Of a stretch of DNA of 64,000 nucleotides, positions 1,779 to 56,645 are shown piece by piece. The position numbers and the translations under genes are program-made. The DNA lies in contig OY759599.1 of NCBI GenBank assembly GCA_963662465.1, forward strand, positions 7,040,001 to 7,104,000. The letters are read 5' to 3'. This DNA is from Desulfatiglandales bacterium. Lineage in GTDB: Bacteria > Desulfobacterota > DSM-4660 > Desulfatiglandales > Desulfatiglandaceae. The notes beneath the pieces were generated by a model, which searched no databases, was not told where the DNA came from, and saw only the letters and a program-made list of their open reading frames with translations. The number at the start of each line of letters is the position of its first letter. Within the stretch, counting starts at the first letter, position 1.

Positions 1779-3784
1779 CGCATAAGTCTAAATGTTGTGG
1801 GGTTTACTCTAACATATTGAAATTATTTCATCTGTTAAACGGTTCAGAATCAATATCCTAATCAAAGCGCATTTCGTGAGGCCAAACATTTTTTCCTGAA
1901 TTCGCCTTAGCGGAAAAAAGTTAGGGACTTTTTTTGATAAGTGTGCATAATCATAGTGCAACAGTCTATGTTAAATTAGAGAGGTTGCACATGATTAATA
2001 ATATTAAGAGAGCTTTGACAATGTTGGACAAAGCTCAAAACAGACTTGCAAGACAATGTTATTACGATCCAAAACAGTATCCTGAGATTTTCTTTGAAAT
2101 TGAGAAATGCATTAATGCCATCAGATCATGGATCAATGAAAGGGAGATGTTTCAATCATTGCAATATTTTTATGTAACATTGTCTGCTCTTATTGATGAA
2201 TTTGGTAGGTTAATAAGTCAATTATGGGATATTTGTAAGCCAATAAAAGGGAAAAAAAGCATTCCAAAAACACAACGGGATCGACAGAAAATTAGAATCT
2301 TTTATTCAATTCGTTCAATGATAAGTAATATTACTAAAAAATTGAATAATGTAAAAAGTCGTGATAGTACAATCAGTATTGCATTTGAGATAGGGATGTT
2401 AAAATCTTTTGATAAATCCATAATCGAAAATGTAAAAAAGAAAATGGAAGACCTTGTTTCTAAACGAGGAAATCAAACATATATCTTTCCTTATAATAAC
2501 ACCGAAAGCTATCATGCTCTCGTAAAAGATAGTAAGAAGTTTCGCATTGAAGTATTAGATAAACTCGATAAATATGATCACCACACAGGCCATAATTCAA
2601 CATGTTCTGGACCTAAAGAATATATTTTATCTGGTTTCCGCGGGAATCCTCGAAAAACAATAATGAATGGAGGAGAACAACAGACATTCCCAATCCGCAT
2701 GATACAATGCCGGAAGTGCAAACAAAAGTTCTCTCTTGTTCCCAGCTTTCTCCCAAGGGAAAAGAATTTTGGTATAGAGATTATTGGGCACGTATTTCGG
2801 AATATGTACCGTTTTAATGCGAGCATTCAAGGAGCCATCGAAAGCCTTAAAATTATTGGCAAAAAAAGTGTCAAAAGCAAACAGACCATCTTGAACTGGA
2901 ATCGATGGGCAGGAACACTTCATCCTGCAACAATACTAACAAGAGCAGGAGTGAAAGGCTCAGGATATCTACAGGAAGATGAGGGCTTTGAAAAAGAACC
3001 AAATTTAAGAACTTATTCTGTAGTTATGGTCGATCCTGAAAATTTATTAGTATGGCACTCCGATTATGTTGATCATGTTGATGAAGAAAACCTGTGCGGT
3101 TCATTTGAGGATTTTTTGCAAAAAATCGACTTCAAAATCCTTGGTGTAACAAAAGATAAGTGGAAAGCCTCAACCAATGCTATCAAGACCGTATTCCATA
3201 ACATTTGGGTCGGATATTGCCATCGTCATTGTTTGAAAAACTTCTACGATGCACTATCAAAATATCAAAAAGAATCAAAATGTACCGACCAAGAAGTGGA
3301 CAAGCTTTATAAAAAATTTAAGAAAGTTTTGAAAACATCCACATCTAAAGTTAACTTGGAAGTAAAGATTAAGGCATTAGATGACGATGCATTTTCTCAT
3401 CCATTACTAAAAAAGAGGGTAGTAGAATTAAAAGAAAATGCCACTCATTATACCTCTCATAAAAATAGAAATGGGATAAAACAAACAACCTCCATTGTTG
3501 ACAATTATTTAAAAGGAATCAAACGTAAACTAAAACAAATTGAGAGTTTTCGAGATAAGAAATGGGCAAGTCTTTTCTTTCGAGCACATGCGACTATCAG
3601 GAATTTTGTCCCATTTTTACCTGGCGCAAAAAATGCTCATAAAAGTCCCTTTGAATTAGCCAACGGCCAAACATTTGACTTACCTTGGATTCAAGTTATG
3701 AATGTTCATAATGCATTCTTGTTTACCGAAAACGCCTTTTAATTTTGATGGGTTATACAACCCCACAACATTTAGACTTATGCG
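1779..3784 (+). mobile_element. IS 'A' copy 1 (2006 bp)
   Basis: 26-bp perfect IR CGCATAAGTCTAAATGTTGTGGGGTT; 8-bp TSD ATCTGGAA at 1771-1778 and 3785-3792. Confidence 0.95.
1934..3742 (+). CDS. putative DDE transposase of IS 'A' (family unclear)
   Basis: Only long ORF between the IRs; CxxC plus acidic motifs; three near-identical copies in window. Confidence 0.85.
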   Translation: MISVHNHSATVYVKLERLHMINNIKRALTMLDKAQNRLARQCYYDPKQYPEIFFEIEKCINAIRSWINEREMFQSLQYFYVTLSALIDEFGRLISQLWDICKPIKGKKSIPKTQRDRQKIRIFYSIRSMISNITKKLNNVKSRDSTISIAFEIGMLKSFDKSIIENVKKKMEDLVSKRGNQTYIFPYNNTESYHALVKDSKKFRIEVLDKLDKYDHHTGHNSTCSGPKEYILSGFRGNPRKTIMNGGEQQTFPIRMIQCRKCKQKFSLVPSFLPREKNFGIEIIGHVFRNMYRFNASIQGAIESLKIIGKKSVKSKQTILNWNRWAGTLHPATILTRAGVKGSGYLQEDEGFEKEPNLRTYSVVMVDPENLLVWHSDYVDHVDEENLCGSFEDFLQKIDFKILGVTKDKWKASTNAIKTVFHNIWVGYCHRHCLKNFYDALSKYQKESKCTDQEVDKLYKKFKKVLKTSTSKVNLEVKIKALDDDAFSHPLLKKRVVELKENATHYTSHKNRNGIKQTTSIVDNYLKGIKRKLKQIESFRDKKWASLFFRAHATIRNFVPFLPGAKNAHKSPFELANGQTFDLPWIQVMNVHNAFLFTENAF

Positions 3785-4334
3785 ATCTGGAACATGGTCT
3801 TCAAGATTCAGCAAATGACATCTTTTTCGTGGGATACCAGGCAAAGGGAACACCCGGCAGGCGGATCATTGAAAAGAAAGTCCCCGTTAAAGCAGGCATC
3901 CATACCCTCACGGGCTATTCAGCCCATGCGGATCAGAGCATGCTGGTTAGCTGGGTAAAATCCATGCCTGAACCTCCGGGAGAGATAAGGCTGGTGCATG
4001 GGGAAGATCGTGCCCGGCATGCCCTTTCGGAAGCGCTCTATCCCCTAAAAACGACAATAAACCAAGCCTGACCTTATGTTGCGAGTTTCCCTAACTGCCT
4101 AAAGATATTGACATTTCGATATCTTGTTCAGGAACTGATGAAGTCCTTGCAATATTAGCATGTTAACCCATTTAATAGCTTTTCCGAAAAGTATTTCGCA
4201 ACATAATAATAGACGAAAAACGTTGATGTTCATATCGGGAGATTCGTTTTTGGATCATCAAACAGCGATCCATATTCGATCTGTCCGCAGCGAGCATTAC
4301 TGCGCATTCATTCTCAATAGATCGACTGTAGTGC

Positions 4335-17873: not shown

Positions 17874-19879
17874 CGCATAAGTCTAAATGTTGTGGGGTTT
17901 ACTCTAACATATTGAAATTATTTCATCTGTTAAACGGTTCCGAATCAATATCCTAATCAAAGCGCATTTCGTGAGGCCAAACATTTTTTCCTGAATTCGC
18001 CTTAGCGGAAAAAAGTTAGGGACTTTTTTTGATAAGTGTGCATAATCATAGTGCAACAGTCTATGTTAAATTAGAGAGGTTGCACATGATTAATAATATT
18101 AAGAGAGCTTTGACAATGTTGGACAAAGCTCAAAACAGACTTGCAAGACAATGTTATTACGATCCAAAACAGTATCCTGAGATTTTCTTTGAAATTGAGA
18201 AATGCATTAATGCCATCAGATCATGGATCAATGAAAGGGAGATGTTTCAATCATTGCAATATTTTTATGTAACATTGTCTGCTCTTATTGATGAACTTGG
18301 TAGGTTAATAAGTCAATTATGGGATATTTGTAAGCCAATAAAAGGGAAAAAAAGCATTCCAAAAACACAACGGGATCGACAGAAAATTAGAATCTTTTAT
18401 TCAATTCGTTCAATGATAAGTAATATTACTAAAAAATTGAATAATGTAAAAAGTCGTGATAGTACAATCAGTATTGCATTTGAGATAGGGATGTTAAAAT
18501 CTTTTGATAAATCCATAATCGAAAATGTAAAAAAGAAAATGGAAGACCTTGTTTCTAAACGAGGAAATCAAACATATATCTTTCCTTATAATAACACCGA
18601 AAGCTATCATGCTCTCGTAAAAGATAGTAAGAAGTTTCGCATTGAAGTATTAGATAAACTCGATAAATATGATCACCACACAGGCCATAATTCAACATGT
18701 TCTGGACCTAAAGAATATATTTTATCTGGTTTCCGCGGGAATCCTCGAAAAACAATAATGAATGGAGGAGAACAACAGACATTCCCAATCCGCATGATAC
18801 AATGCCGGAAGTGCAAACAAAAGTTCTCTCTTGTTCCCAGCTTTCTCCCAAGGGAAAAGAATTTTGGTATAGAGATTATTGGGCACGTATTTCGGAATAT
18901 GTACCGTTTTAATGCGAGCATTCAAGGAGCCATCGAAAGCCTTAAAATTATTGGCAAAAAAAGTGTCAAAAGCAAACAAACCATCTTGAACTGGAATCGA
19001 TGGGCAGGAACACTTCATCCTGCAACAATACTAACAAGAGCAGGAGTGAAAGGCTCAGGATATCTACAGGAAGATGAGGGCTTTGAAAAAGAACCAAATT
19101 TAAGAACTTATTCTGTAGTTATGGTCGATCCTGAAAATTTATTAGTATGGCACTCCGATTATGTTGATCATGTTGATGAAGAAAACCTGTGCGGTTCATT
19201 TGAGGATTTTTTGCAAAAAATCGACTTCAAAATCCTTGGTGTAACAAAAGATAAGTGGAAAGCCTCAACCAATGCTATCAAGACCGTATTCCATAACATT
19301 TGGGTCGGATATTGCCATCGTCATTGTTTGAAAAACTTCTACGATGCACTATCAAAATATCAAAAAGAATCAAAATGTACCGACCAAGAAGTGGACAAGT
19401 TTTATAAAAAATTTAAGAAAGTTTTGAAAACATCCACATCTAAAGTTAACTTGGAAGTAAAGATTAAGGCATTAGATGACGATGCATTTTCTCATCCATT
19501 ACTAAAAAAGAGGGTAGTAGAATTAAAAGAAAATGCCACTCATTATACCTCTCATAAAAATAGAAATGGGATAAAACAAACAACCTCCATTGTTGACAAT
19601 TATTTAAAAGGAATCAAACGTAAACTAAAACAAATTGAGAGTTTTCGAGATAAGAAATGGGCAAGTCTTTTCTTTCGAGCACATGCGACTATCAGGAATT
19701 TTGTCCCATTTTTACCTGGCGCAAAAAATGCTCATAAAAGTCCCTTTGAATTAGCCAACGGCCAAACATTTGACTTACCTTGGATTCAAGTTATGAATGT
19801 TCATAATGCATTCTTGTTTACCGAAAACGCCTTTTAATTTTGATGGGTTATACAACCCCACAACATTTAGACTTATGCG
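17874..19879 (+). mobile_element. IS 'A' copy 2 (transposase 18029-19837)
   Basis: Same 26-bp IR; 8-bp TSD GGAAAAAG at 17866-17873 and 19880-19887. Confidence 0.95.
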
Positions 19880-22765: not shown

Positions 22766-24563
22766 CAGCAATTCCCGCTTAGATTCTAAAGGCGCTAGGA
22801 CAGTACCTTTTGGCATTTCCTTTTCGTAAAGCTTTACGTTGAATGAATAGCCTGAAAAGGCTTTTTTCTCCAATTTTTAAAATAAAACAGGAATTTTTTT
22901 GGCAATTCTCAGAAAAAGCTGGACTTTCAGATCAACTTGGCCGATGATTACTGCCTATGGGAATCAGAAGCCAAAAAGGAAGAAAAGAGAGAGGCAAGAT
23001 TGGAGTTCGCAAGCATCTTAATGCAGATGCAATTTTCAAGCGTCTGCATAAAGATTTTTCTGAAGTCTCTGACTGCCGTGAGGATCCCGATATTACTATT
23101 GCGGATGCCTTGATGTCCGGGTTTGCAATGTTTTCGCTCAAGGAGCCATCGTTGCTTGCCTTTGATGAAAGAAGAAAAACCGATAGTAATCTTGGGAACA
23201 TATACCATATTGGAAAGATCCCATGTGACAGTACGATGCGCACCATTCTTGATGAAGTGCTCGCAGAAGAACTTCGGAAACCGTATAGGAATATCTTCTG
23301 GGAACTGCAAAGGGGAAAGGTGCTTGAACGTATGGTATTTTTCGAAGGTTGTTATCTTCTATCTTTGGATGGAACGGGTTTCTTCTCATCGAAGAAACTT
23401 TCCTCTGATAGTTGTTTGGTAAAAGTATCGAAAAAAACCGGCGAAAAAACCTATTATCAGCAGATGTTGGGGGCAGCAATTGTCCATCCGGATTTCAAAG
23501 AGGTCATTCCGCTTGCTCCGGAATTCATAGTCAAGCAGGATGGCCAAAGCAAGAACGACTGTGAGCGTAATGCCGCGAAACGTTTCTTGCAAAAGCTAAA
23601 AGAGGAGCATCCCCATCTGCCTATCATTATAACAGAGGACGCGTTAAGTTCGAATGCACCCCACATTGAAGAAATACAAAAGCAAAATTTTCATTATATT
23701 CTGGGAGTTAAAAAAGGAGATCACCATTTCTTGTTTAATCACGTCGAACAAGCGCGGATAAATGGTGACGTCACTGAATTCGAATTGGTCGATAAAGAGG
23801 ATCCGGAAAAAATACATCGTTTCCGATTTATTAACCAGGTACCTCTCAATGCCTCTAACAAGAATATGCTGGTTAACTTTCTGGAATATTGGGAAATTAC
23901 ACCGAAAAAAACAAAACATTTTAGTTGGGTGACAGATTTTTTAATAGGAAAGGACAATGCATACCAGCTAATGCGAGGCGGCCGTGCGAGATGGAAGATC
24001 GAAAATGAAACCTTCAATACTCTTAAGAACCAAGGATATCATTTTGAACACAACTACGGGCTCGGCAAGAAGAATCTGAGTGTTGTTTTTGCGATGCTCA
24101 TGATGCTGGCATTCTTGGTGGATCAAACTCAACAGCTTTGTTGCCCTCTATTTATAGCCGCATGGCATAAACTCGGCTCAAAAAGGGAATTGTGGGAACG
24201 GATGAGAGCTTTGTTTAGAGATTTTGAATTCAAATCGATGAGGATGCTCTATGAAGCCCTCTATTATGGCGTAAAGTTTCAAGCGCCAGTTATTCTATAT
24301 AACAGTGGTTAAATTTGTCATGCCCAAGTTCGCATACAAAAATGCTCTCATTAATAAAAAACTGGAGATTCCGGAAATGGATATCTCTGCCCTAACTCGT
24401 GCTTTTATGCTCTTACTCTTGTCAAAGAAGCTCAACCTGCAAGAAATCGAGGGAGGTAATAGTGGATTTAATACAATTTTTCTGAAAAGGATCTGATCTC
24501 AGGGTTTGTTTTTGAAATATGTTTTTCAAACTCTGTGAGTAAATTCTTGACCGGGAATTGCTG
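22766..24563 (+). mobile_element. IS (1798 bp), probably ISNCY/IS4-like
   Basis: IR CAGCAATTCCCG; 9-bp TSD AAGTATACA at 22757-22765 and 24564-24572. Confidence 0.93.
22957..24312 (+). CDS. DDE transposase
   Basis: SLDGTG, TEDAL, RARWKIENETFNTLKNQGY. Confidence 0.9.
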   Translation: MGIRSQKGRKERGKIGVRKHLNADAIFKRLHKDFSEVSDCREDPDITIADALMSGFAMFSLKEPSLLAFDERRKTDSNLGNIYHIGKIPCDSTMRTILDEVLAEELRKPYRNIFWELQRGKVLERMVFFEGCYLLSLDGTGFFSSKKLSSDSCLVKVSKKTGEKTYYQQMLGAAIVHPDFKEVIPLAPEFIVKQDGQSKNDCERNAAKRFLQKLKEEHPHLPIIITEDALSSNAPHIEEIQKQNFHYILGVKKGDHHFLFNHVEQARINGDVTEFELVDKEDPEKIHRFRFINQVPLNASNKNMLVNFLEYWEITPKKTKHFSWVTDFLIGKDNAYQLMRGGRARWKIENETFNTLKNQGYHFEHNYGLGKKNLSVVFAMLMMLAFLVDQTQQLCCPLFIAAWHKLGSKRELWERMRALFRDFEFKSMRMLYEALYYGVKFQAPVILYNSG

Positions 24564-25015
24564 AAGTATACAACAGACTGGGCTTCGGCTTCCTGGAAAG
24601 CATTTACCACAAAGCCATGCTCATCGAACTCGCAAGGGCCGGACTAAAAGCAGAATCTGAAAAAGGCTTAACCGTTCATTATGATGAGATGGTTATTGGA
24701 GAGTTCTCAGCGGACATATTTGTGGAAAATGAAATCATCGTAGAACTCAAAGCGGTTGAGCGGCTGATGAAAGTGCATGAAGTGCAAGTGGTGAACTACC
24801 TAACAGCATCGAAAAATGAAATTGGCCTGCTAATCAACTTCGGCCCAACAGGCGTCAAAGCTACCCGCAAATACCGAAAACCCCTCAAACAGGCACAAAG
24901 AATCAACCAGAAAAAGAAACCCAAAAAAAATCCTGTTAATCCTGTCTAAAAAAAATACAAAAAATTGTATCCAGTCAGAAACTGGGCACCTAAATTCTCA
25001 CTGCAAAAAAAACCG

Positions 25016-33206: not shown

Positions 33207-35729
33207 TCCGCGGATTACGCAGATTGCGCAGATTATTTGTATCGGACCTGATTGCGGAGCTGCACAATAGGTCTAATTCGCATGTACTCGGAAATTTTAA
33301 ATGATAAAACAGAAATCCAAAAAATCCTGTTAATCCTGTCTGAAAATTGGAGAACATATGAAAATTCCCCTCATTAAACCCTACATCACCCAGGAAGTGA
33401 AAGACAAAGTCTGCGAAGTCCTGGACAGCGGTTACCTCACCGAAGGGCCGGTGACCCGTGAATTCGAGGAAGCCTTTCGATCGTATATCGGCTGCAACCA
33501 TGCCATACCGTCACTTCCTGTACGACCGGCCTGGAGATGGCGTTGCGCGTCCTGAATATCGGCCCTGGAGACGAAGTCATCGTACCGGATTACACCTACC
33601 CGGCCACCGCTGATGTGGTGGCCATTGTGGGTGCTAAGATCGTGATTGTGGATGTGTCCAAAGAAACCATGCTGATCGACTAAGATAAGATCGAATCTGC
33701 GATCACCGAAAAAACCAAAGCAATTATTCCGGTTTCAGGTTTTGGAAATCCGCTCGACTATGAATGTCTTGCTCAAATCAACGAAAAATTCGGGGTCTAT
33801 ATTGTTGAAGACGCGGCCTGCTCCATAACCCCGAATGGGCCGACTGGATGTTTTCATACGCATAAGTCTAAATGTTGTGGGGTTGTATAACCCATCAAAA
33901 TTAAAAGGCGTTTTCGGTAAACAAGAATGCATTATGAACATTCATAACTTGAATCCAAGGTAAGTCAAATGTTTGGCCGTTGGCTAATTCAAAGGGACTT
34001 TTATGAGCATTTTTTGCGCCAGGTAAAAATGGGACAAAATTCCTGATAGTCGCATGTGCTCGAAAGAAAAGACTTGCCCATTTCTTATCTCGAAAACTCT
34101 CAATTTGTTTTAGTTTACGTTTGATTCCTTTTAAATAATTGTCAACAATGGAGGTTGTTTGTTTTATCCCATTTCTATTTTTATGAGAGGTATAATGAGT
34201 GGCATTTTCTTTTAATTCTACTACCCTCTTTTTTAGTAATGGATGAGAAAATGCATCGTCATCTAATGCCTTAATCTTTACTTCCAAGTTAACTTTAGAT
34301 GTGGATGTTTTCAAAACTTTCTTAAATTTTTTATAAAGCTTGTCCACTTCTTGGTCGGTACATTTTGATTCTTTTTGATATTTTGATAGTGCATCGTAGA
34401 AGTTTTTCAAACAATGACGATGGCAATATCCGACCCAAATGTTATGGAATACGGTCTTGATAGCATTGGTTGAGGCTTTCCACTTATCTTTTGTTACACC
34501 AAGGATTTTGAAGTCGATTTTTTGCAAAAAATCCTCAAATGAACCGCACAGGTTTTCTTCATCAACATGATCAACATAATCGGAGTGCCATACTAATAAA
34601 TTTTCAGGATCGACCATAACTACAGAATAAGTTCTTAAATTTGGTTCTTTTTCAAAGCCCTCATCTTCCTGTAGATATCCTGAGCCTTTCACTCCTGCTC
34701 TTGTTAGTATTGTTGCAGGATGAAGTGTTCCTGCCCATCGATTCCAGTTCAAGATGGTCTGTTTGCTTTTGACACTTTTTTTGCCAATAATTTTAAGGCT
34801 TTCGATGGCTCCTTGAATGCTCGCATTAAAACGGTACATATTCCGAAATACGTGCCCAATAATCTCTATACCAAAATTCTTTTCCCTTGGGAGAAAGCTG
34901 GGAACAAGAGAGAACTTTTGTTTGCACTTCCGGCATTGTATCATGCGGATTGGGAATGTCTGTTGTTCTCCTCCATTCATTATTGTTTTTCGAGGATTCC
35001 CGCGGAAACCAGATAAAATATATTCTTTAGGTCCAGAACATGTTGAATTATGGCCTGTGTGGTGATCATATTTATCGAGTTTATCTAATACTTCAATGCG
35101 AAACTTCTTACTATCTTTTACGAGAGCATGATAGCTTTCGGTGTTATTATAAGGAAAGATATATGTTTGATTTCCTCGTTTAGAAACAAGGTCTTCCATT
35201 TTCTTTTTTACATTTTCGATTATGGATTTATCAAAAGATTTTAACATCCCTATCTCAAATGCAATACTGATTGTACTATCACGACTTTTTACATTATTCA
35301 ATTTTTTAGTAATATTACTTATCATTGAACGAATTGAATAAAAGATTCTAATTTTCTGTCGATCCCGTTGTGTTTTTGGAATGCTTTTTTTCCCTTTTAT
35401 TGGCTTACAAATATCCCATAATTGACTTATTAACCTACCAAATTCATCAATAAGAGCAGACAATGTTACATAAAAATATTGCAATGATTGAAACATCTCC
35501 CTTTCATTGATCCATGATCTGATGGCATTAATGCATTTCTCAATTTCAAAGAAAATCTCAGGATACTGTTTTGGATCGTAATAACATTGTCTTGCAAGTC
35601 TGTTTTGAGCTTTGTCCAACATTGTCAAAGCTCTCTTAATATTATTAATCATGTGCAACCTCTCTAATTTAACATAGACTGTTGCACTATGATTATGCAC
35701 ACTTATCAAAAAAAGTCCCTAACTTTTTT

Positions 35730-47371: not shown

Positions 47372-47528
47372 GGAACTATAAATGTAAGAGTTGGCAACTC
47401 AAAACCCAAAACCCAAAACCCAAAACTCAAAACCCAAAACCCAAAACCATCTTTGCTCTCTTCGTTACCTTCTGTAAAAAGCCCTTAAAAAAAATCCTGT
47501 AAAATCCTGTAAATCCTGTCTAAAAAAA

Positions 47529-47617
47529 GGTCCCGGTTTTTCAGGAACCAGGAGAAACTGAAGGAAACCGCCGTCCAGGATGACCTGAATAAGCCCCTGT
47601 TCGGAGCTGATGCCGTT
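47529..47617 (+). pseudogene. short dehydrogenase fragment
   Basis: Starts at the same GGTCCCGG junction and is truncated after ~90 bp. Confidence 0.85.
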
Positions 47618-47864
47618 TTACACTATCACGGTAATAGGAAAATCGAAAGAAACGCATGAATGCATGGGCGTCCCCCTGCCCACAGAAAACATCCTAACCC
47701 CTGCGGCTTTCCGCTTCGGGTGCCTTTGTAATCCGGCTTGTCGAAGATGCCGAAATGCGGTGTCCCGTGAAATTGACGAAGTCAAGAGCGGAGCTCATTA
47801 GGATAGCTTGCCCGATCCCAGCCCCCCAATGGATGCCCCCCTTATGATGTGTAAGCCCTAATGC

Positions 47865-47904
47865 TTGACAGCTTCCAAAACGATGTGTATACATGATGTA
47901 TATC
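47865..47904 (+). promoter_or_regulatory. vapBC promoter with overlapping operator-like repeats
   Basis: TTGACA-17-TATACA overlapping TGTATACATGATGTATAT. Confidence 0.6.
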
Positions 47905-47925
47905 CATTGCGCTGCAGGAGGTGCT

Positions 47926-48156
47926 ATGAATACAGCCAAAATCTTTAGGAGCGGAAATTCTCAGGCAGTACGCTTGCCAAAAGATTTCCAGTTTAATGTA
48001 TCTGAAGTCGAGATTTATCGCAGGGGGGATGAGGTGGTCCTGCGAAAGAAGCTTCAGAATCTATCCAGGGTTTTTGACCTGCTAACCGACATGTCCGATG
48101 ATTTCATGGAAGACGGTCGTAATCAGCCTCCCATGCAGGAGAGAGAACCGTTTTGA
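47926..48156 (+). CDS. vapB: AbrB-fold VapB antitoxin
   Basis: TAKIFRSGNSQAVRLPKDFQF. Confidence 0.92.
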   Translation: MNTAKIFRSGNSQAVRLPKDFQFNVSEVEIYRRGDEVVLRKKLQNLSRVFDLLTDMSDDFMEDGRNQPPMQEREPF

Positions 48157-48557
48157 TATATATGTTGGACACGGACATTTGCATTTACACGATCAAACGC
48201 AAACCAAGCAGTGTTGTGAATCGACTTGAACAGCTTAAGCCTGGCGAACTTGCAATGTCTGCCATCACTTTTGCGGAGTTGGTGAATGGGGCAAAGAAAA
48301 GCAAGTATGTTGAAGCAAATATGGAGCGGCTCAATGCCTTGGGTGAATTGATCGACGTCCGACCGTTTGATAAACAGGCTGCCCTTTTTTACGGAAGTGT
48401 TCGCTCCAGCCTTGAGAAGAGAGGAGAAGTGATCGGCGGAAACGATCTCTTGATAGCGGCTCATGCACTAAGTCTCAACTGGACCCTGGTTACGAATAAC
48501 GAAAAGGAATTCAGACGGGTTGAAGGATTGAGAGTTGAAAATTGGGTCGATGCATAA
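48153..48557 (+). CDS. vapC: VapC PIN toxin
   Basis: YMLDTDICIY, DLLIAAHA, LVTNNEKEF.RV.GL. Confidence 0.93.
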   Translation: MIYMLDTDICIYTIKRKPSSVVNRLEQLKPGELAMSAITFAELVNGAKKSKYVEANMERLNALGELIDVRPFDKQAALFYGSVRSSLEKRGEVIGGNDLLIAAHALSLNWTLVTNNEKEFRRVEGLRVENWVDA

Positions 48558-49192
48558 TCGTGTTGATTTACAAAAGAAAATCCAGTGAGTTAAGTCCAGA
48601 ATCGTCTCTTGCTCCTTCGGTTTTGTGCGGTTTCTGTCATCTGTCAGCTGAACGCTGCGATCTGTTTTTCCGGCCCTTCGACCTCTGACTTCTGGTTCTT
48701 AAAGGCCTCTTTTTGACCCCCAAAAGGGGTGTTTAAGGTCCAGAAACCCCCTGTATTGTGGGGTAACATGCCGATATTAAGGGATTCAGCTTGGTCAGAT
48801 CCCCAATCCGACCCCTGCCTTCCCCGTGAAACCTCTTTTGTATTTGTTTCACCGGAGCTTCATCGGGCTGCTAAAAAAGAGCAGTGGAATAGTAGCAGCG
48901 TTCCCCACGTCCCCCGTTGAACTAAATACCTGCCTATGGGAGGCAAACGCTCCGGATTCCTTTTCTCCGTTTTCTTAAAGGCGCCTTTTTGGGGTCAAAA
49001 AGCGTGTTTTAAGGTTGATTTTTGGGTTTTTTTTAGGCTTAACCTATTGAATAAATGGGAATGTTCCTGGTCCGACCCCGACCCTATAAATGCAAGAGTT
49101 GGCAACTCAAAACCCAAAACCATCTTTGCTCTTTTCGTTATCTTCTGTAAAAAGCCCTTAAAAAAAATCCTGTAAAATCCTGTCTAAAAAAA

Positions 49193-49515
49193 GGTCCCTG
49201 TTTTTCAGGAACCAGGAGAAACTGAAGGAAACCGCCGTTCAGGATGACCTGAATAAGCCCCTGTCCGGAGCCGATGCCGTTATTTTGGCGGTGCGACACC
49301 GGGCCTATCTTGATCTGGACCCGGATGGGGTGGTGGAAATGATCGGTGGTCCGGCGACTGTGGTGGACTGCTTCGGGGTGTTGGACGATGCGGCCATCAA
49401 GCGGTATTTCGAGTTGGGTTGTGAGGTCAAGGGACTTGGGCGGGGGCATATTAAGCGGATTAAGGACCGGGTGCGGGCTTCAATAAAAGCTGAAGAACCA
49501 AAAACTCCAAAATAA
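49193..49515 (+). pseudogene. 3'-end fragment of nucleotide-sugar dehydrogenase
   Basis: Same junction; ends KDRVRASIKAEEPKTPK*. Confidence 0.9.
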
Positions 49516-49790
49516 GGCAGTAATTTATAAACTTACTGATTGAGAAAAACCATTTTCAGGTGTTGGGTGATTGTGTTGCGTGAAAACCCGCGTCTCCCGC
49601 GTGGCCCCGTGCTCAGGGACGAGCCAAGCAGGCTGGGGCTTGGGTACAGGACGAAAATCCTTTACACAAAATCGATTAATTGTTTATGATCATGATTTGC
49701 AGAGAATTACAGTGTTAATGTCCTCTTCGGCAAACGCGGTTTTTGGAGGAGCGCGTCGTGAACAATCCTGATATTCAGACCTCAATATTC

Positions 49791-49864
49791 TGACAGGATT
49801 AACAGGATTGACAGGATAAAAGAAAATGGATGTAAGTATCCATAAAATCATGTAAATCCTGTCA
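49791..49864. repeat. MITE/REPIN-like doublet GACAGGATT...AATCCTGTC
   Basis: Related doublets at 57536-57600 and 27294-27362. Confidence 0.8.
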
Positions 49865-50411
49865 AAAAACCTGAAAAAAATGGTTCCTTACACTAAAATT
49901 GGACGTTCATTGGCTTTCAGCTTCTCGAAACATCAAATACTTATGTTTATAATGAGCGTATGACAGGCCATGATGGGCCACAAAACGTCCATTTTTCGTG
50001 TCTTAAAACGAATATGGAATGGGGGACGTGGGCAACTTTGTAAACTTATTAGACAGGATTTACGGGATTCTCAGGATAATTTCTTGGTTTGCATTTTCAA
50101 TTCCCGCCTGCCCGCAATGCTTCGCAACCTGCCCGCCAGTGCCAGGGGATGGCAGGCGGGCGCGAGGCGGACGGAGACGAAATTGAAAATACCAAATCGC
50201 TTCGCGAAAGGGGAAGGGACAGAGGACGGACGACGGAAGACAGGGGACAGGGGACAGAGGGCGGATGACAGAGGACAGAGCGCCGGGGGCATGATTTGTC
50301 ATGCCCTTTTCTTTCTTGACTTTTGAGAAGAAAGCGTTCTCATTTCATACAAAAGAAGGGGCTACATGATTCCGTCCAGATATCTCAACTATATTTTCAG
50401 GGGGATGAAAA

Positions 50412-50675
50412 ATGGAAATTGAAGAAATAAATGTCACAAAGGTGAAACAAAATCTATTTAAAATTCCAAAAGCCAGGCTCCCTGAGATTAACGATTTTAT
50501 AGAGTTCATATTGTCGAAAACTGAATCAAACGGATTAAAACAAGTAGAGAAACTCGAGGGCATATGGAAAGGTCTGGGTTTTGAACGGATCTCTGATCTG
50601 GATAACAGTATTCGTGGAATTCGTGATGAGTCAGAAAAAGCAATGCTGGACAGGATGGCAAAGTGCAATACTTAG
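50412..50675 (+). CDS. putative antitoxin (DUF2281-like)
   Basis: EINDFIEFI...LEGIWKG; overlaps the PIN gene. Confidence 0.65.
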   Translation: MEIEEINVTKVKQNLFKIPKARLPEINDFIEFILSKTESNGLKQVEKLEGIWKGLGFERISDLDNSIRGIRDESEKAMLDRMAKCNT

Positions 50676-51052
50676 CAGATACTGTCGCGATTATCAGGCA
50701 TTTTGCAAGTGTAGGCAGAATTGGAAAAGCAGCAAAGTCAATCCTTCGGGATGCCGATAATGGAAAAAACAAAATACTGATGTCAATTATTTCCATGGTT
50801 GAAATTCTTTATTTGTCAGAGCGCAACAGAATTCCATTGAATCTGGAAGAAGCGAGACGTAAACTCCTACGCTTGGACAACTATGAAATTGTCGATTTAG
50901 ATCTTGGTATTGTCGAAACGGCAAGAACTGTTCAAGGATTGGAACTTCACGACCGACTCATTGTTGCAACCGCCTTATCTTTGAATGTACCGATATTGAC
51001 CAGTGATCAAATCATCCGTGATTCCGGGCAAATTGATGTAATCTGGAGCTAA
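50663..51052 (+). CDS. PIN-domain toxin
   Basis: YLADT, SMVEI, ELHDRLIVATA, LTSD. Confidence 0.88.
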   Translation: MQYLADTVAIIRHFASVGRIGKAAKSILRDADNGKNKILMSIISMVEILYLSERNRIPLNLEEARRKLLRLDNYEIVDLDLGIVETARTVQGLELHDRLIVATALSLNVPILTSDQIIRDSGQIDVIWS

Positions 51053-51601
51053 CGCCGCATAGCCGCACAAAATGCCTTTTGGCGCAAAGGCGCGAAGGTT
51101 TTGCTGTTTTTTTTGTGATAGACTTTCAGAAAATAAGCCACAGAATAATCCCTACTTATAAAGGTCTCTTTCCGTTGAGTATTTCAGAAACGGTCGATTT
51201 GGCGCCTAAAATTCCGACCAAGTCTTTCTGTTTCAAAGCATTTTGATCCATGAGGAATTTCAACAGGTCAACACCGCCGCGACGTTCCACTGGAAAGTTT
51301 TCCGACTCATAATATTCAATCAAAACCGATAGGGAACTGCGGAACGTCCTTTATATATTTACATTCTGCTGTTCGCCTTTTTACCGATAATGCCTCAAAT
51401 TGAACCTGACTCACTTGGGAGGAGCGAATACGGTGACGGGCTCTTGTCATCTTCTTCAGGTGAATGGGTTGAATATTCTGGTGGATTGCGGATTGGCGCA
51501 AGGGGCTGACTACGTTGCGCCCATGGATTCGTGGCCGGTCTCTCCGGGGGAGGTTGATTTTGTATTTTTGACCCACGCGCATATCGACCATATCGGGCGG
51601 G

Positions 51602-52130
51602 TGCCGGGTCCGCAGATTACGCAGATTGGCGCAGATTAGATACGGATGAAAGACCAAAGGACATATAGGATTATTGGGTGTGCGATGGAGGTGCAGTCCG
51701 CAGATTACGCAGATTACACGGATTGTTGAACAACGTGAAGGACGAACGAACATATAAAATAATTGGTGCAGCCATGGAAGTGCATAAGGAGTTGGGGTGT
51801 GGTTTCCTTGAGGCGGTGTATCAGGAGGCGTTGAGGAGGGAGTTTGATCTGCAGGGGATTCCGAATGTGGCTCAGCCTTTGATTGGGATTTGCTACAAAG
51901 GGAAACCTCTGGATAAGAAATATCAGCCCGATTATGTTTGCTATGAAGAGATTGTAGTAGAGATTAAAGCCCTTGCTACTTTGACGAGCCTGGATGAGGC
52001 CCAGCTTATTAACTATCTGAAGGCCACAGGCCTTGCCGTCGGCCTTTTGATTAATTTTGGTGCGAAATCTCTCCAATACAAGAGACGTGTCTATAATCTG
52101 CGTGAATCTGCGTAATCTGCGGACCCGGCA
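51602..52130 (+). mobile_element. GxxExxY cassette bounded by 26-bp perfect inverted repeats
   Basis: TGCCGGGTCCGCAGATTACGCAGATT at 51602-51627, reverse complement at 52105-52130. Confidence 0.75.
51735..52115 (+). CDS. GxxExxY protein (PD-(D/E)xK-like), intact
   Basis: GCGFLEAVY, PDYVC...VEIKA, QLINYLKAT, GLLINFG. Confidence 0.92.
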   Translation: MKDERTYKIIGAAMEVHKELGCGFLEAVYQEALRREFDLQGIPNVAQPLIGICYKGKPLDKKYQPDYVCYEEIVVEIKALATLTSLDEAQLINYLKATGLAVGLLINFGAKSLQYKRRVYNLRESA

Positions 52131-52554
52131 TGTGCACGGGCGGCAGGATTGTGGACCATTTGCGGTCAGGCATCGAGGATGCGCGCAATGATGTCTTGTT
52201 TGTGGGATACCAGGCCAGGGGTACGCTTGGCAGGGACCTCATTCGGTATGGCCGGCGGCCCGGCGGATATGTGGTTATTGACGGGGAGCGGCATGAGATT
52301 CATGCCCGAATTCATGAGTTGACCGGCTATTCGGCCCATGCCGATCAGCTGGGGCTGGTTGCGTGGGTGGGGGGTATGGGGGAGATGCCCAGAGAGATAC
52401 GGTTTGTGCATGGGGAGGAAGGGGCCAGGAGGGCTTTGGAAGGTGTGCTGGGGGCCGGAGGTCGGAGGTCGGAGGTCGGGAGATAGAGATGGAGAAAAAA
52501 GACAGGAGTGGGGGGGGCTGGGATCGGAAGGACGGGCTTTTCTCTCTGACAAGA

Positions 52555-52690
52555 GGGTCGCTCGCGATTTTTCCATGACTTGACGATGAACAGCCTGCTG
52601 TTCAGCCATGGCGATGATTCTTTCTGCCGAGCCCGGGGCGACCTTTTCATATTGAGCCGGCGATTCCGCCGGAGGCAATGGTCCCTGGTG
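52555..52690 (-). pseudogene. DUF2335-like fragment
   Basis: GPLPPA...YEKVAPGSAERIIAMAEQQAVHR, truncated. Confidence 0.65.
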
Positions 52691-52781
52691 ATGATAAAAA
52701 GTTTGCTAAGTTGCGGTAACGCTTGTTCGGTTGCTTTTGTGTGTATTAGCGGGGATATTTTTGTTTTTCGATCCGGGTGAT

Positions 52782-53027
52782 TTAGCCCTGAGAAGTTAAA
52801 CGTCGCTCGTGTTCGGCCATGGCTGCCTTCAAATCTGATGCGACGGCTTTCCAGTCTGAAGACATTGCTTCATGATCAGCTTGTTCAGGGGTAAGGGAAG
52901 TGTTGTATTCACTTAAGGTAGTTCCCAAATCCAATATACGCGCCATGCCTTCTATGAAGCTGGGATTTGCAAACAGAAAATATTTTTGCATAAAAAACCT
53001 CCTTTGCATGCAATATAACAACTCCAT
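52782..53027 (-). CDS. hypothetical protein
   Basis: PSFIEGMARILDLG...D.EAM.SDW.AV..DL; GGAGG precedes the internal ATG. Confidence 0.6.
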   Translation of the reverse strand: MELLYCMQRRFFMQKYFLFANPSFIEGMARILDLGTTLSEYNTSLTPEQADHEAMSSDWKAVASDLKAAMAEHERRLTSQG

Positions 53028-53423
53028 TTCTAAGAAATCAAGAAAAAACCGGGTGAAAGGCTGCGGGACATCCTATAAGAAAATAAGAAACTCTCGCGCA
53101 GAGACGCAGAGACGCAGAGAAGGGACAGATGTCAGAGGTCCGAGGTCAGATGTCAGAGTGTGGGGAATGGGGGACGTAGCTACTTTTGTAACTTTATTTT
53201 AGGTTTTCACGCACAGTGAAATAAAGGAAAGAACGTGAACAGGGAAAGTCCAGCGAAAGCAACTACCTTTGGGCACGCGGCCGTGAAGAATATCATTAAG
53301 GGAATACGCAATGGAAGAAGTCTGGAATCCACACGATTTAGAGTTCAGAAAACTCTTGAAGTCACAATTTGTTTGGTTCTATTATAGGGGAAATTTGAGT
53401 CACATCTTTTATGGAGGGGTAAG

Positions 53424-53651
53424 ATGGGAACCGAACAGATTACCATGCAGATCGATGATGAGGCTGCACGCGCCTTCAGGTCCGCATCTTCTATAGATCG
53501 GCGAAAACTGGAGGCCCTTGTCAGCATCCAGCTCCTTGAAGCAACGAGATCAAAGGATTCCTTGAAAGAGCTGATGAGCGGAATCAGTCGAAAGGCGAGG
53601 GAAAGGGGGCTTACACCGGAAATCTTGCAGGAAATACTCAATGCCCGGTAA
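53424..53651 (+). CDS. putative antitoxin
   Basis: Ends ARERGLTPEILQEIL; overlaps a PIN gene start. Confidence 0.7.
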   Translation: MGTEQITMQIDDEAARAFRSASSIDRRKLEALVSIQLLEATRSKDSLKELMSGISRKARERGLTPEILQEILNAR

Positions 53652-53866
53652 GCCGCGGTATGTGTTTGACACGAATGTAATGGTCAGTGCCCTTCTGTTT
53701 GATCAATCAAAGCCGGCCCAGGCCTTTAACGCCGCCCTTGACCGAGGCAGCATTCTTCTTTCCCATTCTGTTCTGAAGGAACTAACGGAGGTCCTTGGGA
53801 GGGAAAAGCTGCGCCCATTTGGTTCCTGAAGAACGAGAGCAATTTATTATTGCTCTTCTCAAAGAG
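53641..53866 (+). pseudogene. PIN toxin, frameshifted and truncated
   Basis: RYVFDTNVMVSALL...ELTEVL.REK, then runs into REP-like repeats. Confidence 0.8.
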
Positions 53867-54274
53867 TCCCCAACGGGGCGTGACATACCAGCCCGGGGCA
53901 ACGCCCTGGGAACAGGTTGTAAAGATCGTCGAGCCCTGAAAGGGCTTGACATTATACACATAATTTACAGGCAGCCTAATTTATGTAACGCCCTTTCAGG
54001 GCTGATGTTGTTGTTAAACCCTCACCCAGGGCGTTGCCCCGGGCTGATATGTAATGCCCTTTCAGGGCTAGAGCAGAAAGGTATCAATTCAGTTGCGAAG
54101 CACCATAACGCAGTAGATTCGGTAAAAGAGGCGCTCCCGAAGGGTTCAACTTTTTCCCTGAAAGTCCCTGAATTATTGACAGCATTTCGGTGTTTGCAGG
54201 GGGTGTGCATTTATTGCATAACATTTTAATATTTCATTATTTTTATTCAATTTCAAGAAAGTTGAATGCAGCTT

Positions 54275-54495
54275 TTAGGTGCAATACGAAGGTAATCATC
54301 CTGATTGCGAATCACATGGTCATGGAACGATTTCCGCCACGGCGAGAACCCCAAACGTTTTGTAATGGATCCTTTCCATTGCTTGATGATCCGGGATACC
54401 GTAGGGGCGACCTGTGGTCGCCCGTTAACCTGTGGTCGCCCGTCATTTGTAAACGGGCGAACATAAGGCGGGCGAACACAGTTCGCCCCTACATC
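54275..54495 (-). pseudogene. REP-associated tyrosine transposase fragment with GTAG-type REPs
   Basis: IIKQWKG...W.KSFHDHVIRN; GTAGGGGCGACCTGTGGTCGCCC hairpin. Confidence 0.7.
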
Positions 54496-54607
54496 GTACC
54501 CCTGCAACCGGTTACGTTTTCGTGTTGGGTATTTGGAGGCATTTACCTGGGAACATTGAGCAAAGATCGTCGAGCCCTGTAAGGGCTTGATATACATGGG
54601 AGATCGC

Positions 54608-55063
54608 ATGGCCCAATCACTCGCGAAGATAGCATTACACCTCGTGTACAGTACGAAAAATCGGGAACCCTGGATTAAAGACTTGAGTTTGCGGTCTCGC
54701 TTGCACGCCTATCTTGCCGGGGCGTGTAGAGCGGTAGGCAGCGAAGCATACCGCGTGGGGGGCACCGATGATCACGTTCATATCGCATGTACATTGCCGC
54801 GAACGTTAACCGTAAGCAAATTGCTGGAGGAGATCAAGAAATCGTCATCGATATGGGTGAAGAAGCAGGATGACCAACTTCGATTGTTTGCTTGGCAGGC
54901 CGGATACGGTGCTTTTTCCGTTGGAACGTCGCAGGTACCCGTGCTGATGAACTACATTGACAATCAACTGGAACACCACCATTCAAGCACCTTTAAAGAG
55001 GAATTTCTGAACTTCCTCAACCGCTATGGAATTGAATACGATGAACGATATCTCTGGGACTGA
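54608..55063 (+). CDS. tnpA: IS200/RAYT-type HUH (Y1) transposase, intact
   Basis: HLVYSTKNR, DHVH, WQAGYGAFSV, YIDNQ.EHH. Confidence 0.92.
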   Translation: MAQSLAKIALHLVYSTKNREPWIKDLSLRSRLHAYLAGACRAVGSEAYRVGGTDDHVHIACTLPRTLTVSKLLEEIKKSSSIWVKKQDDQLRLFAWQAGYGAFSVGTSQVPVLMNYIDNQLEHHHSSTFKEEFLNFLNRYGIEYDERYLWD

Positions 55064-55513
55064 AAGGGGTGTCACGCCCTTTCAGGGCTTCGGTTTTTGT
55101 GGATTTAAACCCAGGGCGTTGCCCTGGGCTGGTATGTATTGCCCTTTCAGGGCAAAAAATTGAAATGGTCAAAAATTGATTAATAAACCAATATTTGAAG
55201 GGTTATGCAGGTGGGGTGGGGCCAAGCTAACCGATTAGAATGATTAGTGATACTATGAAAACAAGACCCTGTGGAGCCATCGGGACGTCCATAAGTTTAT
55301 AAGAAACTCGCGCAAAGGCGCCAAGCCGCAAAGAAGAGACGAAAGATGACGGAAGACGAAGGACAGCGGTGAGACGACAGATGGCCTCTCCCTACTGGGC
55401 ATGGAGATAATTGCTGGGAAATTGTTCATGGAAGAATCCAGAGGACGGGGAGGGACTGAGGGACAAAGAGACTAAGGGCCGCAGGGATTTGATTTGAAAA
55501 TAATCGGTGATTT

Positions 55514-55849
55514 TTATTCCACCCAAATAAGCCGACGGGCTATGGCGCAGGCCTTTGCAAGGGTTTGCCTGTCAAGTGTGCCGATTTTTTTCACCAGTCG
55601 TTTTTTGTCCAGGCTTCTCAGTTGATCGAGCATGATCTTGGAATCCCTGTCGAGCCCACCTGTACCACGGAGAATGAACATTTCAAAGGGATATACCTTG
55701 CCGGTTGAAGAGGTTATGGGAGCAACAATCAATCTGGGCGAACTGTGATTCATGGCATTTACCGAAATGATGAGTCCTGGCCTGGTCTTGCCGATTTCGG
55801 TTTGTACCGTGGGGTCCAGATTCACAAGATAGATGTCTCCCTGATTCAT
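55514..55849 (-). CDS. mazF: PemK/MazF toxin
   Basis: QGDIYLVNLDP..EIGKTRP, VAPITS, DQLRSLDKKRL. Confidence 0.92.
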   Translation of the reverse strand: MNQGDIYLVNLDPTVQTEIGKTRPGLIISVNAMNHSSPRLIVAPITSSTGKVYPFEMFILRGTGGLDRDSKIMLDQLRSLDKKRLVKKIGTLDRQTLAKACAIARRLIWVE

Positions 55850-55850
55850 T

Positions 55851-56093
55851 TCAACGCCATCCCTCTGTGTCCAATGGTTTCCAGTCGTTGATGGCGGCTT
55901 CACGTGCTTTGTCGGTTGCAGCCTCGGCAAATTCCAGACGCAACGCCTTTTCTTCACTTTCCCGTATCTTTCTTAGAACTTCGCGCTTCAATAATTCATT
56001 GACAGCTCGGCTTTTTTGACGGTTGGGTACCAGTTGGCCAAAACTTTCCCATGTCTCCCGTTCAAGGGTTAAATTTACTCTGATCTGTTCCAT
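55851..56093 (-). CDS. antitoxin partner of MazF
   Basis: RHH-like N-terminus, acidic C-terminus, adjacent to mazF. Confidence 0.75.
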   Translation of the reverse strand: MEQIRVNLTLERETWESFGQLVPNRQKSRAVNELLKREVLRKIRESEEKALRLEFAEAATDKAREAAINDWKPLDTEGWR

Positions 56094-56327
56094 CTGTCCC
56101 CCCTTTGTTCATTTATATCCATAGGGCCTGTATTGTAATACAGTGAAGTCAGGATTTCAATCAGAAACAGGCTTGAGGTCGTGGGGCTGCGGGATGTCCA
56201 TGTGGGCCGGGGTCAGGCTTTCCTTATTGTCGTTATTGGGTATTGGAAATCAAATGGGCGAATTGTACTTGACTGTCAATATTGCATATTATAATGTGAG
56301 ATAAAATCAAATTGTGCATAATATAAT

Positions 56328-56645
56328 ATGGAAAAAATATTAATATCCCATAACCGCCATTGGGAAACCCCCTATCAGGGGCTGTACCCGAGACAGATGT
56401 TCCAGAAGCTGGTCAGGCAGCTATCAGCAAGGCATATCCAGGTATTGCAGGGGATCCGGAGAAGCGGTAAATCCACGGTGTTCAAGCTGATGATCAATCA
56501 TCTTTCAGCATTGCACGACCCCATGGAAATCTTGTACCTGAACCTTGAGGACCCGTTTTTCATCCAGTTCAGCCAGTCGCCTGAAAAACTCTACGACGTC
56601 ATCGATACGGCCCGAAAATTGACGGGGCAGGAAGGCCGGAAGTAG
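56328..56645 (+). pseudogene. N-terminal fragment of AAA+ ATPase (AAA_14-like)
   Basis: Walker A GIRRSGKST, ILYLNLED; ends before Walker B. Confidence 0.75.

Follow-up and report, generated by a model that had tools for sequence, protein, structure and literature searches.

A 518-nt mobile cassette with a GxxExxY gene between inverted arms of CGCAGAT units in a broken beta-CASP metallo-beta-lactamase gene of a Desulfatiglandales bacterium

In the 64,000-nucleotide (nt) stretch of a Desulfatiglandales bacterium genome analyzed here (hereafter the window, located at 7,040,001-7,104,000 of the source genome G000, a single contig of 8.16 Mb), a gene for a beta-CASP metallo-beta-lactamase (MBL) hydrolase is occupied by a real, discrete and horizontally mobile cassette, which destroyed the gene at this site and carries an intact gene of the GxxExxY family (PDDEXK_3, PF13366) between inverted arms of short tandem units. 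The link of the cassette to this conserved iterated motif is strong. The reading that we prefer, tentatively and at somewhat under an even chance, is that of a 518-nt selfish cassette that sits in an MBL pseudogene in place of approximately 744 nt, and whose nuclease is predicted to recognize the units and to cut at the cassette ends.

The inverted repeat that delimits the cassette (I1) has 42-nt arms at 51602-51643 and 52089-52130, which are 90% complementary and 445 nt apart, and in its core 51602-51627 (TGCCGGGTCCGCAGATTACGCAGATT) is the exact reverse complement of 52105-52130. Tandem Repeats Finder located period-9 arrays of CGCAGATTA in both arms (51611-51638 and 52094-52121, 3.0 copies each) and a further period-9 array of 2.1 copies at 51699-51717. 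Local alignment of the upstream flank with the reverse complement of the downstream flank gave a score of 64, vs a mean of 16.2 (standard deviation 2.0, maximum 23) for 100 dinucleotide shuffles. Coordinates, arrays and shuffles thus bear out the original prediction, made from the sequence alone, of an intact GxxExxY open reading frame (ORF) between perfect 26-bp inverted repeats of 9-nt units. Its statement that no transposase lies inside also held, since PDDEXK_3 is the sole Pfam match in the cassette: the four other ORFs that overlap it have none, and no gene of a recognized transposase or recombinase family was found there with Pfam. Rfam had no match on the cassette and disclosed no rRNA in the window, and neither an intron nor an intein was found around the GxxExxY gene with Pfam and Rfam. 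An independent assembly of run X1, the likely source run, covers 50300-52833 with zero differences.

Two features had been absent from that prediction, namely a second copy of the left arm and, between the two copies, a 5' stub of another GxxExxY gene (Table 1). The stub sequence at 51646-51696 (MKDQRTYRIIGCAMEVQ) is identical to the resident gene in 36/51 nt, and residues 1-16 of the window protein match it by tblastn (E 1.5e-6). The inner left arm (L2) has 20 nt identical to the outer one (L1; repeat family D1) and is 100% complementary to the right arm (R; inverted repeat I2), this second match being limited to 20 nt. The cassette therefore carries the remains of at least two cassette lineages, one represented by L1 and the stub and the other by L2 and the gene. 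Pairing with R extends over 42 nt (90%) for L1 but over only 20 nt for L2, which suggests that a single cassette had L1 and R as its two ends.

Table 1. Components of the cassette and of the MBL gene around it (window positions)
Feature	Positions	Strand	Description
5' remnant of beta-CASP MBL gene	51400..51607	+	Lactamase_B 1.9e-12; carries THAHIDH
Whole cassette, 518 nt	51608..52125	+	Order: L1 arm, gene stub, L2 arm, GxxExxY gene, R arm
Outer left arm L1	51608..51643	+	GTC and three CGCAGAT units, 9- and 10-nt spacing; best partner of right arm
5' stub of different GxxExxY gene	51646..51696	+	17 codons, ATG start; breaks after ...GAGGTGCAG
Inner left arm L2	51696..51724	+	Two CGCAGAT units and one CACGGAT unit, 9-nt spacing
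GxxExxY / PDDEXK_3 gene, intact	51735..52115	+	126 aa, GTG start, TAA stop inside right arm
Right arm R	52089..52125	-	Three inverted units; codes for the last codons of the gene, NLRESA and stop
3' remnant of same MBL gene	52127..52486	+	GMCTGGRI..., Beta-Casp 4.3e-12, RMMBL 1.3e-10

On the host side, the left remnant covers positions 5-61 of the Lactamase_B profile and ends in ...THAHIDHIGRVP (...HIGRVP), at 51607, and the right remnant covers Beta-Casp positions 84-120 of 120 as well as RMMBL. The complete MBL, Beta-Casp and RMMBL architecture is absent from the host gene, which lacks approximately 248 amino acids (aa) in comparison with intact homologues of 424-440 aa, the closest of which are 58-65% identical; in an intact 424-aa homologue the gap between the two break points amounts to 248 aa, or 744 nt. 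Profiles and homologue together confirm the earlier view of the flanks as the 5' and 3' parts of an MBL hydrolase without some 250 codons. The missing middle was not found elsewhere, as a Beta-Casp search of the source genome returned other paralogues only. The Type VII CRISPR Cas14 family (NF045584) was also considered for the MBL fragments and rejected at 66.7 and 90.9 bits vs a cut-off of 800, scores that reflect a generic beta-CASP resemblance only.

The limits of the cassette can be set to the base, with host sequence stopping at 51607 and resuming at 52126/52127 around a cassette of 518 nt, because contigs of other metagenome runs read on at these points. A contig of run X4 joins 51607 to 52126, skipping 518 nt. 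In run X8, contigs with a flank match of at least 85% continue from 51607 into (VP)DLIEAGFEGE and reach 52127 from ...DGPMAVLAGS, and both stretches are MBL coding sequence that the window lacks. Of an 838-nt contig of run X4, 40 nt match up to 51607 and 56 nt match from 52126 on, which leaves 742 nt unplaced vs 744 expected (742-782 nt when a 1098-nt contig of run X6 is included); it is compatible with an intact MBL allele but is no proof of one, the position of the unplaced letters not being given. Empty-site MBL alleles in relatives had been suggested as a check: the orthologous site was not found in five genomes of the same genus searched with 47500-56500, which returned dispersed matches to repeats and, at 68-70% DNA identity, MBL paralogues, but the X8 contigs do read into the missing middle. 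Short contigs of runs X5 and X6 present yet another form, in which the right arm, identical over its last 30 nt, leads into 52400 and not into 52126. Host sequence at 52126 agrees with that at 52400 in 11/14 nt (CGGCATGTGCACGG and CGGTTTGTGCATGG), and the 52400 junction may have arisen from this cassette end as a second one or through a small deletion that came later.

The CCGG noted in the original prediction is present at both cassette/host junctions, where the host flank forms a 4-6-nt palindrome (TGCCGG...CCGGCA) that may be due to chance or microhomology. CCGG as a general target or duplication was rejected, since other copies end in GATCC and have unrelated flanks.

Replacement of the middle of a gene was found again in the closest relatives of the window cassette. 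Among 76 loci searched, gene stubs next to extra arms recur in the closest clade, with 5' stubs in L018, L020 (twice), L021 and the window, and 3' stubs in L020 (twice) and L055. The locus L020, whose protein is 77% identical to that of the window, holds at 813-1965 three to four nested layers of GxxExxY cassettes. Their outer arms can be assigned to one another in pairs, which enclose truncated 5' and 3' gene stubs, inner arms and one complete gene; one of these outer pairs shares a mirrored internal insert of 35 nt and has a flank match of score 86. The 5' stubs of L020 have 17 codons, ending in ...GAGATACAG followed by TCC and in ...GAAGTACA followed by ATCC; they break after codon 16/17, at the same point as the window stub (...GAGGTGCAG followed by TCC). 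The 3' stubs start at or just after the NFG motif at residues 104-109 (KSLEYKR..., NFGSKSL..., and KSLEHKRFIYTK with its stop), and a right arm comes after each. Each incomer in L020 thus replaced the middle of the gene of the resident cassette, approximately codons 18-108. Given these nested copies, the MBL locus is no special case: cassettes repeatedly come to stand where the middle of a gene had been, and this recurrence suggests either integration between two separate sites or insertion followed by a deletion initiated at the cassette end.

The gene and its arms also form a unit over a wide range of bacteria. A scan of one genome per species, with the single protein as query, yielded 80 loci with relatives 53-77% identical, from the Thermodesulfobacteriota, Acidobacteriota, Verrucomicrobiota, Planctomycetota, Chloroflexota, Nitrospirota, Bacteroidota, Proteobacteria and other phyla, and 75 of them had enough flank to be scored. 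When the upstream flank was compared with the reverse complement of the downstream flank, an inverted match with a score of at least 30 was observed in 61/75 loci, vs 0/62 controls displaced by 500 nt (maximum score 23), and the inverted repeats that the original prediction had expected around homologues are therefore enriched. The arms of most loci, like those of the window, follow the consensus (A/G)TC-CGCAGAT-NN-CGCAGAT-NN(N)-CGCAGAT, and (A/G)TC with CGCAGAT was seen in the Acidobacteriota, Verrucomicrobiota, Planctomycetota, Chloroflexota, Nitrospirota, Proteobacteria and others, with minor clades bearing CACGAAT, CGCGAAT, CACAGAT, CACAAAT or CACGGAT units. The arms overlap the ends of the ORF, the ATG often being that of CGCAGATG and the stop often being the TAA of TAATCTGCGGA. 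Three clean units on each side are present in 31 loci, where the first period is 9 without exception and the second either 9 or 10; agreement of the cores is 94%, in part a consequence of the search pattern, and the spacers agree in 57% of positions between the left and right arms of a cassette vs 41% between cassettes. Because the cores are conserved at approximately one helical turn from each other and the spacers are free, the arms look like protein-binding iterons rather than a selected stem, and GxxExxY would be the protein that reads them. The units also co-vary with the protein tree, as had been proposed: across the tree of 74 proteins, with 10 states in 60 typed rows, there are 11 changes of unit type, vs 15-17 in 300 label shuffles.

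Filled and empty sites speak for mobility in these other genomes. Cassettes were found between gltB and gltD in seven loci of the Verrucomicrobiota, after a tRNA in three loci of the Terriglobia and between sdhA and sdhB in three betaproteobacterial loci. In 31 genomes of one family, the sdhA-sdhB site is filled by a sister cassette in four and empty in at least 14, in which the flanks are 2-127 nt apart. One of the cassettes at this site, in genome G051, has CACAGAT units in both arms and its three relatives have CGCAGAT, i.e., in G051 all units of the two arms have changed in concert. The genomes of the three CGCAGAT carriers contain 16-27 short arm matches at other places; in most non-carriers there are none. 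Recurrence in many phyla with the same ends, together with the 4/31 filled orthologous sites, upholds the claim of a discrete mobile cassette.

The source genome itself contains 12 PF13366 matches, and every near-complete copy is flanked by 7-10-nt tandem units in inverted orientation, with related genes carrying related units (CGCAGATTA, CGCAGAGA, CACGAAA, and AATCCTGT/ACAGGATT). It also has 14 arrays of CGCAGATTA, which have a common end, GATCCGCAGATTAC, and only two of which hold a gene, so that arm pairs without the gene occur there as well.

Among the other copies and arrays of this genome, a GxxExxY gene of the AATCCTGT-unit type lies within the window at 24617-24949 (G000 7064557-7064850), just after a DDE-transposase ORF (22957-24312); it lacks the first ~30 profile positions, and near-identical copies are found at G000 7021931 and 7036341. 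Units of CGCAGATTA were also observed inside long ORFs. In L124 (G000 99602-100438), similar to UDP-GlcNAc 2-epimerases, the array is read as PQITPITQI before the start of the Epimerase_2 match at residue 40, and L125 (G000 113671-115119), similar to O-antigen ligases, stays open across a gene-less arm pair at 114558-114722. The regions 96.6-99.6 kb and 8.156-8.159 Mb of G000 lie near the two ends of the single contig and share the same arrays and neighboring ORFs at a constant offset of 8,059,659 nt, which reflects either a large duplication or an overlap that circular assembly did not remove.

As for the protein, ORF 51678-52115 matches PF13366 (3.2e-38, 131.1 bits, cut-off 22) and TIGR04256 (3.5e-40, 137 bits, cut-off 35), and alignment with relatives and paralogues placed its start at the GTG at 51735. 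Twelve columns are invariant among 74 aligned sequences including that of the window, which has all of them; they include G23, E26 and Y29 of the motif that names the family, and D66, E76 and K78 of the PD-(D/E)xK triad. For the AlphaFold2 model (pLDDT 93.9, pTM 0.87), the nearest solved fold found by Foldseek was Cas4 SSO0001 (E 1.3e-5, TMq 0.50), and further structural neighbors were lambda exonuclease and RecB-type nuclease domains and, more weakly, Hjc. The structural matches (4ic1, 3slp and 4r5q) have TMq values of 0.50-0.56 over approximately 100 residues at 13-21% identity, and no PDB chain had a meaningful sequence-level E-value. The function of GxxExxY/PDDEXK_3 is given as "Unknown" in the table of the superfamily (PMC3424549), and in a passage of another article GxxExxY is mentioned as a neighbor of a reverse transcriptase (PMC8934634). 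Nothing on GxxExxY repeats or mobility was found in the literature searched, which did not extend to subscription journals and supplements.

We envisage that, most likely, a first cassette, made of L1 and the gene of the stub, landed in the MBL gene, and that a second one (L2, gene and R) would then have replaced the middle and 3' part of the gene of the first, as in L020. The host DNA between 51607 and 52126 would have been lost by an adjacent deletion initiated at the cassette end, or by integration of the cassette between two separate sites, and a nuclease cutting at the cassette ends could drive cassette copying as well as the loss of adjacent host DNA. A broader proposal, which we regard as doubtful, is that of a new class of mobile element in which a minimal PD-(D/E)xK nuclease would read iteron-like units at the ends and integrate "ends-out", replacing the DNA between two sites, with gene-less hairpins as non-autonomous derivatives; within that proposal, this is how the MBL middle would be replaced here and the middles of resident genes in L020.

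Several observations, set out in this and the next two paragraphs, weigh against the reading that we prefer. The contigs of run X1 show the filled form only, no excision joint that restores the gene was found in the contigs of runs X1 and X3, in which rare variants are dropped, and no circle junction was seen. A target-site duplication is not readable here, as 744 nt separate the two flanks in the intact gene, nor is one revealed at sdhA-sdhB, where the intergenic spacers are too divergent. Recent movement within the source genome is not evident, since the proteins of its two gene-bearing CGCAGATTA cassettes are only 64-65% identical and one of the two, the copy at 112465, is shared with the relative G010 at the same site, at 87% DNA identity. 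The covariation of units and protein tree points to a unit of inheritance and not to binding, because joint inheritance of gene and flank suffices to produce it. Some loci have reversed arms, with the outer ends facing the gene, or hairpins on both sides, and a gene inside the element is thus not the sole layout.

Arrays without the gene also count on this side. In 301 genomes of the phylum, the exact triple-unit pattern occurs in 30 and a reversed control pattern in none, and a homologue (E <= 1e-20) occurs in 62; the pattern is present in 15/62 genomes with the homologue and in 15/239 without it, which is an enrichment and not a rule. The genomes G105 (29 arrays, 99% complete), G170 (12 arrays) and G236 have no PF13366 match, and the arrays of G105 (L126-L135; at least 29 in all) are uniform gene-less hairpins of approximately 120 nt, in which GGA and three CGCAGAT units (10-nt spacing) are followed by an AT-rich loop, then an imperfect right arm and TCC. 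In the family examined for the sdhA-sdhB site, G059 and G056 hold nine and six arm matches with no PF13366 gene found, and G050 has the gene without CGCAGAT arms. In these cases the gene may have been lost or left unassembled, another enzyme may move the arrays, or the gene may settle in hairpins that are independent of it. Consequently, from the proposal of an undescribed element family with GxxExxY as its mobilizer, the recurring gene-arm unit stands, but the role of mobilizer does not stand equally, as arrays abound in PF13366-free genomes; that GxxExxY moves the cassette is plausible but unproven, and is weakened by those genomes. These same arrays are what would be expected if the tandem-unit hairpins were independent miniature repeats, moved by another enzyme or by host processes, with GxxExxY as a passenger or homing-type parasite in the hairpin loop, and the "arms" were the two halves of a landing site and not mobilized ends. 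We consider this unlikely. It agrees with the gene-less arm pairs with short, unrelated loops of 12-36 nt that are common in runs X3, X4 and X8, with single-copy cassettes that have no dispersed copies (G042 and G043 have one PF13366 match each) and with layouts in which a hairpin stands on each side of the gene, such as the source-genome copy at 108665. However, the element-free alleles, both here and at sdhA-sdhB, have no hairpin at the site, which argues that the cassette brings its own arms. The passenger reading would also leave aside the overlap of the arms with the start and stop codons of the gene and the dispersed arm matches that distinguish the CGCAGAT carriers of the sdh family, and metagenome-assembled genomes can lose the gene to assembly gaps.

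The state of the host gene and of its surroundings is the third point. Other MBL paralogues are broken too, and insertion sequence copies, recombinases and broken genes crowd the window. It contains a 602-aa DUF6431 element in three copies, one of them interrupting a paralogous MBL gene (750-4071), as well as tyrosine recombinases, several DDE transposases, many sugar-metabolism genes in truncated form and toxin-antitoxin pairs. The "host gene" is thus one of several decaying paralogues in a mobile-element graveyard, and the loss of 744 nt could be decay unrelated to the cassette. Accordingly, the cassette may be mobile and the MBL loss a separate event, in which a deletion, or recombination between two cassettes 744 nt apart, left a composite, an alternative that we judge rather unlikely. 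The two lineages within the cassette (36/51 nt between stub and gene) are what recombination of two copies would leave, and the 11/14 likeness of 52126 and 52400 would allow the X5/X6 form to be a deletion between short direct repeats. Against this alternative, host sequence breaks off on either side at exactly the base where the arms have their outer ends, L1 is a better partner of R than L2 is, and the replaced middle recurs in the nested cassettes of L020.

A further alternative is that the cassette works at the RNA level, being co-transcribed with the host operon, with arms that pair into a stem cut by RNase III or by the encoded nuclease to release a small mRNA, and with repeats that are a processing or translational-control signal and not transposon ends. 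Cassettes are indeed co-oriented with the neighboring operon genes: the upstream neighbor is co-oriented in 29 loci, opposite in three and ambiguous in 36, and the downstream neighbor is co-oriented in 25, opposite in seven and ambiguous in 34. They also lie between genes of operons (gltB-gltD and sdhA-sdhB), have no room for a promoter of their own and have arms that overlap the ATG and the stop, and Coxiella's intervening sequence (IVS) offers a parallel as a 428-nt selfish element with one ORF (PMC4990558). We find this alternative improbable, since the spacers are only 57% complementary within a cassette, so that the helices would be of 7 bp, broken by loops of 2-3 nt, the uniformity of direct units within an arm is unnecessary for a stem, no Rfam family matches, and the spread to new sites and the nested copies would be left unexplained. 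That GxxExxY is a vertically kept host gene, e.g., for a repair or defense nuclease, with the repeats as regulatory sites and no mobile DNA involved, is very improbable: it would suit the single-copy, conserved operon position in the seven Verrucomicrobiota loci at gltB-gltD, the one copy in G042 and G043, the 112465 copy shared with G010 and the rarity of GxxExxY relatives on plasmids (8/72,556 records), but not the sdhA-sdhB site that is filled in some genomes and empty in others, the unrelated insertion sites across phyla with the same ends, the insertion within a coding gene here, the nested copies, or the zero matches of the protein in PADLOC and PHROGs.

Other features of the window were recorded alongside these. 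The paralogous beta-CASP MBL gene (750-1820 and 3745-4071) is split after Beta-Casp profile position 97 by the 602-aa ORF at 1934-3742, which has a weak DUF6431 match and is present in three copies in the window (1934-3742, 18029-19837 and, on the opposite strand, 33901-35709). This ORF is probably an active insertion sequence, since it occurs three times in the window, with identical Pfam results. The sole Rfam match at gathering level in the window is an Acido-Lenti-1 RNA at 54025-54069 (39.5 bits), with an IS200-like Y1_Tnp ORF (54587-55063, 5.1e-24) approximately 0.5 kb downstream, and the motif may be a hairpin linked to this transposase. Dozens of other tandem arrays with periods of 7-10 nt are distributed in the window, mostly between small genes (e.g., 50216-50280, 52456-52479 and 53097-53158), with units such as GGACAGA, CGGAGGT, CGCAGAGA, CAGAGGT, AACCCAA and AAATCCTGT.

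In outline, the cassette resembles three known systems, REPIN-RAYT, Ssn-NTS and the IVS of 23S rRNA, and it fails the defining enzyme feature of each of them. In the description of REPIN-RAYT by Bertels and Rainey (2011; PMC3116915), a small enzyme gene is flanked by inverted cognate repeats and gene-less doublets are scattered between genes. The cassette likewise has a gene between its own inverted repeats, gene-less inverted doublets elsewhere and a repeat type that goes with the enzyme lineage. Unlike RAYT, which is an HUH/Y1 tyrosine transposase (PF01797), its enzyme has a PD-(D/E)xK fold, and the Y1_Tnp ORF at 54587-55063 is not part of it but lies 2.5 kb away. Moreover, each arm of the cassette consists of three direct units of 9-10 nt, whereas the REPIN repeat is one imperfect palindrome of 20-25 nt, and the gene shares its start and stop codons with the arms, its co-occurrence with the repeat across genomes being only partial. 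The Ssn nucleases, for which specific in vitro cutting of the NTS/SRM repeat is reported (Chenal et al. 2025, PMC11893778), are similar in that a small nuclease gene is tied to a short multi-copy repeat, but Ssn is a member of the GIY-YIG superfamily that acts on single-stranded DNA, cutting it close to a hairpin-type repeat, whereas the fold of GxxExxY is unrelated and its nuclease activity is predicted. The IVS of 23S rRNA, as presented for helix-45 of Coxiella burnetii (PMC4990558), is also a selfish insert of approximately 0.4-0.5 kb with one small ORF and inverted repeats, within a host transcript. The cassette differs from it in lying within a protein-coding gene or between operon genes, not in rRNA, and in the family of its ORF. 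That of the 23S rRNA IVS belongs to the S23p/four-helix-bundle family.

The Cas4/RecB/lambda-exonuclease branch of nucleases includes the best structural matches of the model, and the D...E.K triad is conserved, but with 126 aa GxxExxY would be a bare nuclease core. The Fe-S cysteines of Cas4 presumably have no counterpart among its invariant columns. Insertion sequences and miniature inverted-repeat transposable elements have terminal inverted repeats, short gene-less derivatives and host deletions that start exactly at the element end. The cassette shares with them its terminal inverted repeats, the gene-less derivatives and the junctions at the cassette end (52126 and 52400), and, as for a classical transposon, there are filled and empty alleles at sdhA-sdhB, the evidence at the MBL site coming from metagenome contigs only. 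It departs from insertion sequences in having no recognized transposase family, no target duplication found and ends made of iterated units.

GxxExxY/PDDEXK_3 is a large orphan family across Bacteria, and the conserved motif that flanks its genes, inverted arms in which three CGCAGAT units share one helical face, gives it a candidate substrate. If the nuclease does act on the arms, it would be a third class of enzyme partnered with short genomic repeats, after HUH (RAYT) and GIY-YIG (Ssn), the widespread intergenic tandem-unit hairpins would be explained, and a very small sequence-directed nuclease might become available. To this, the MBL locus adds that such cassettes can destroy genes, and that the associated deletions start exactly at the cassette ends.

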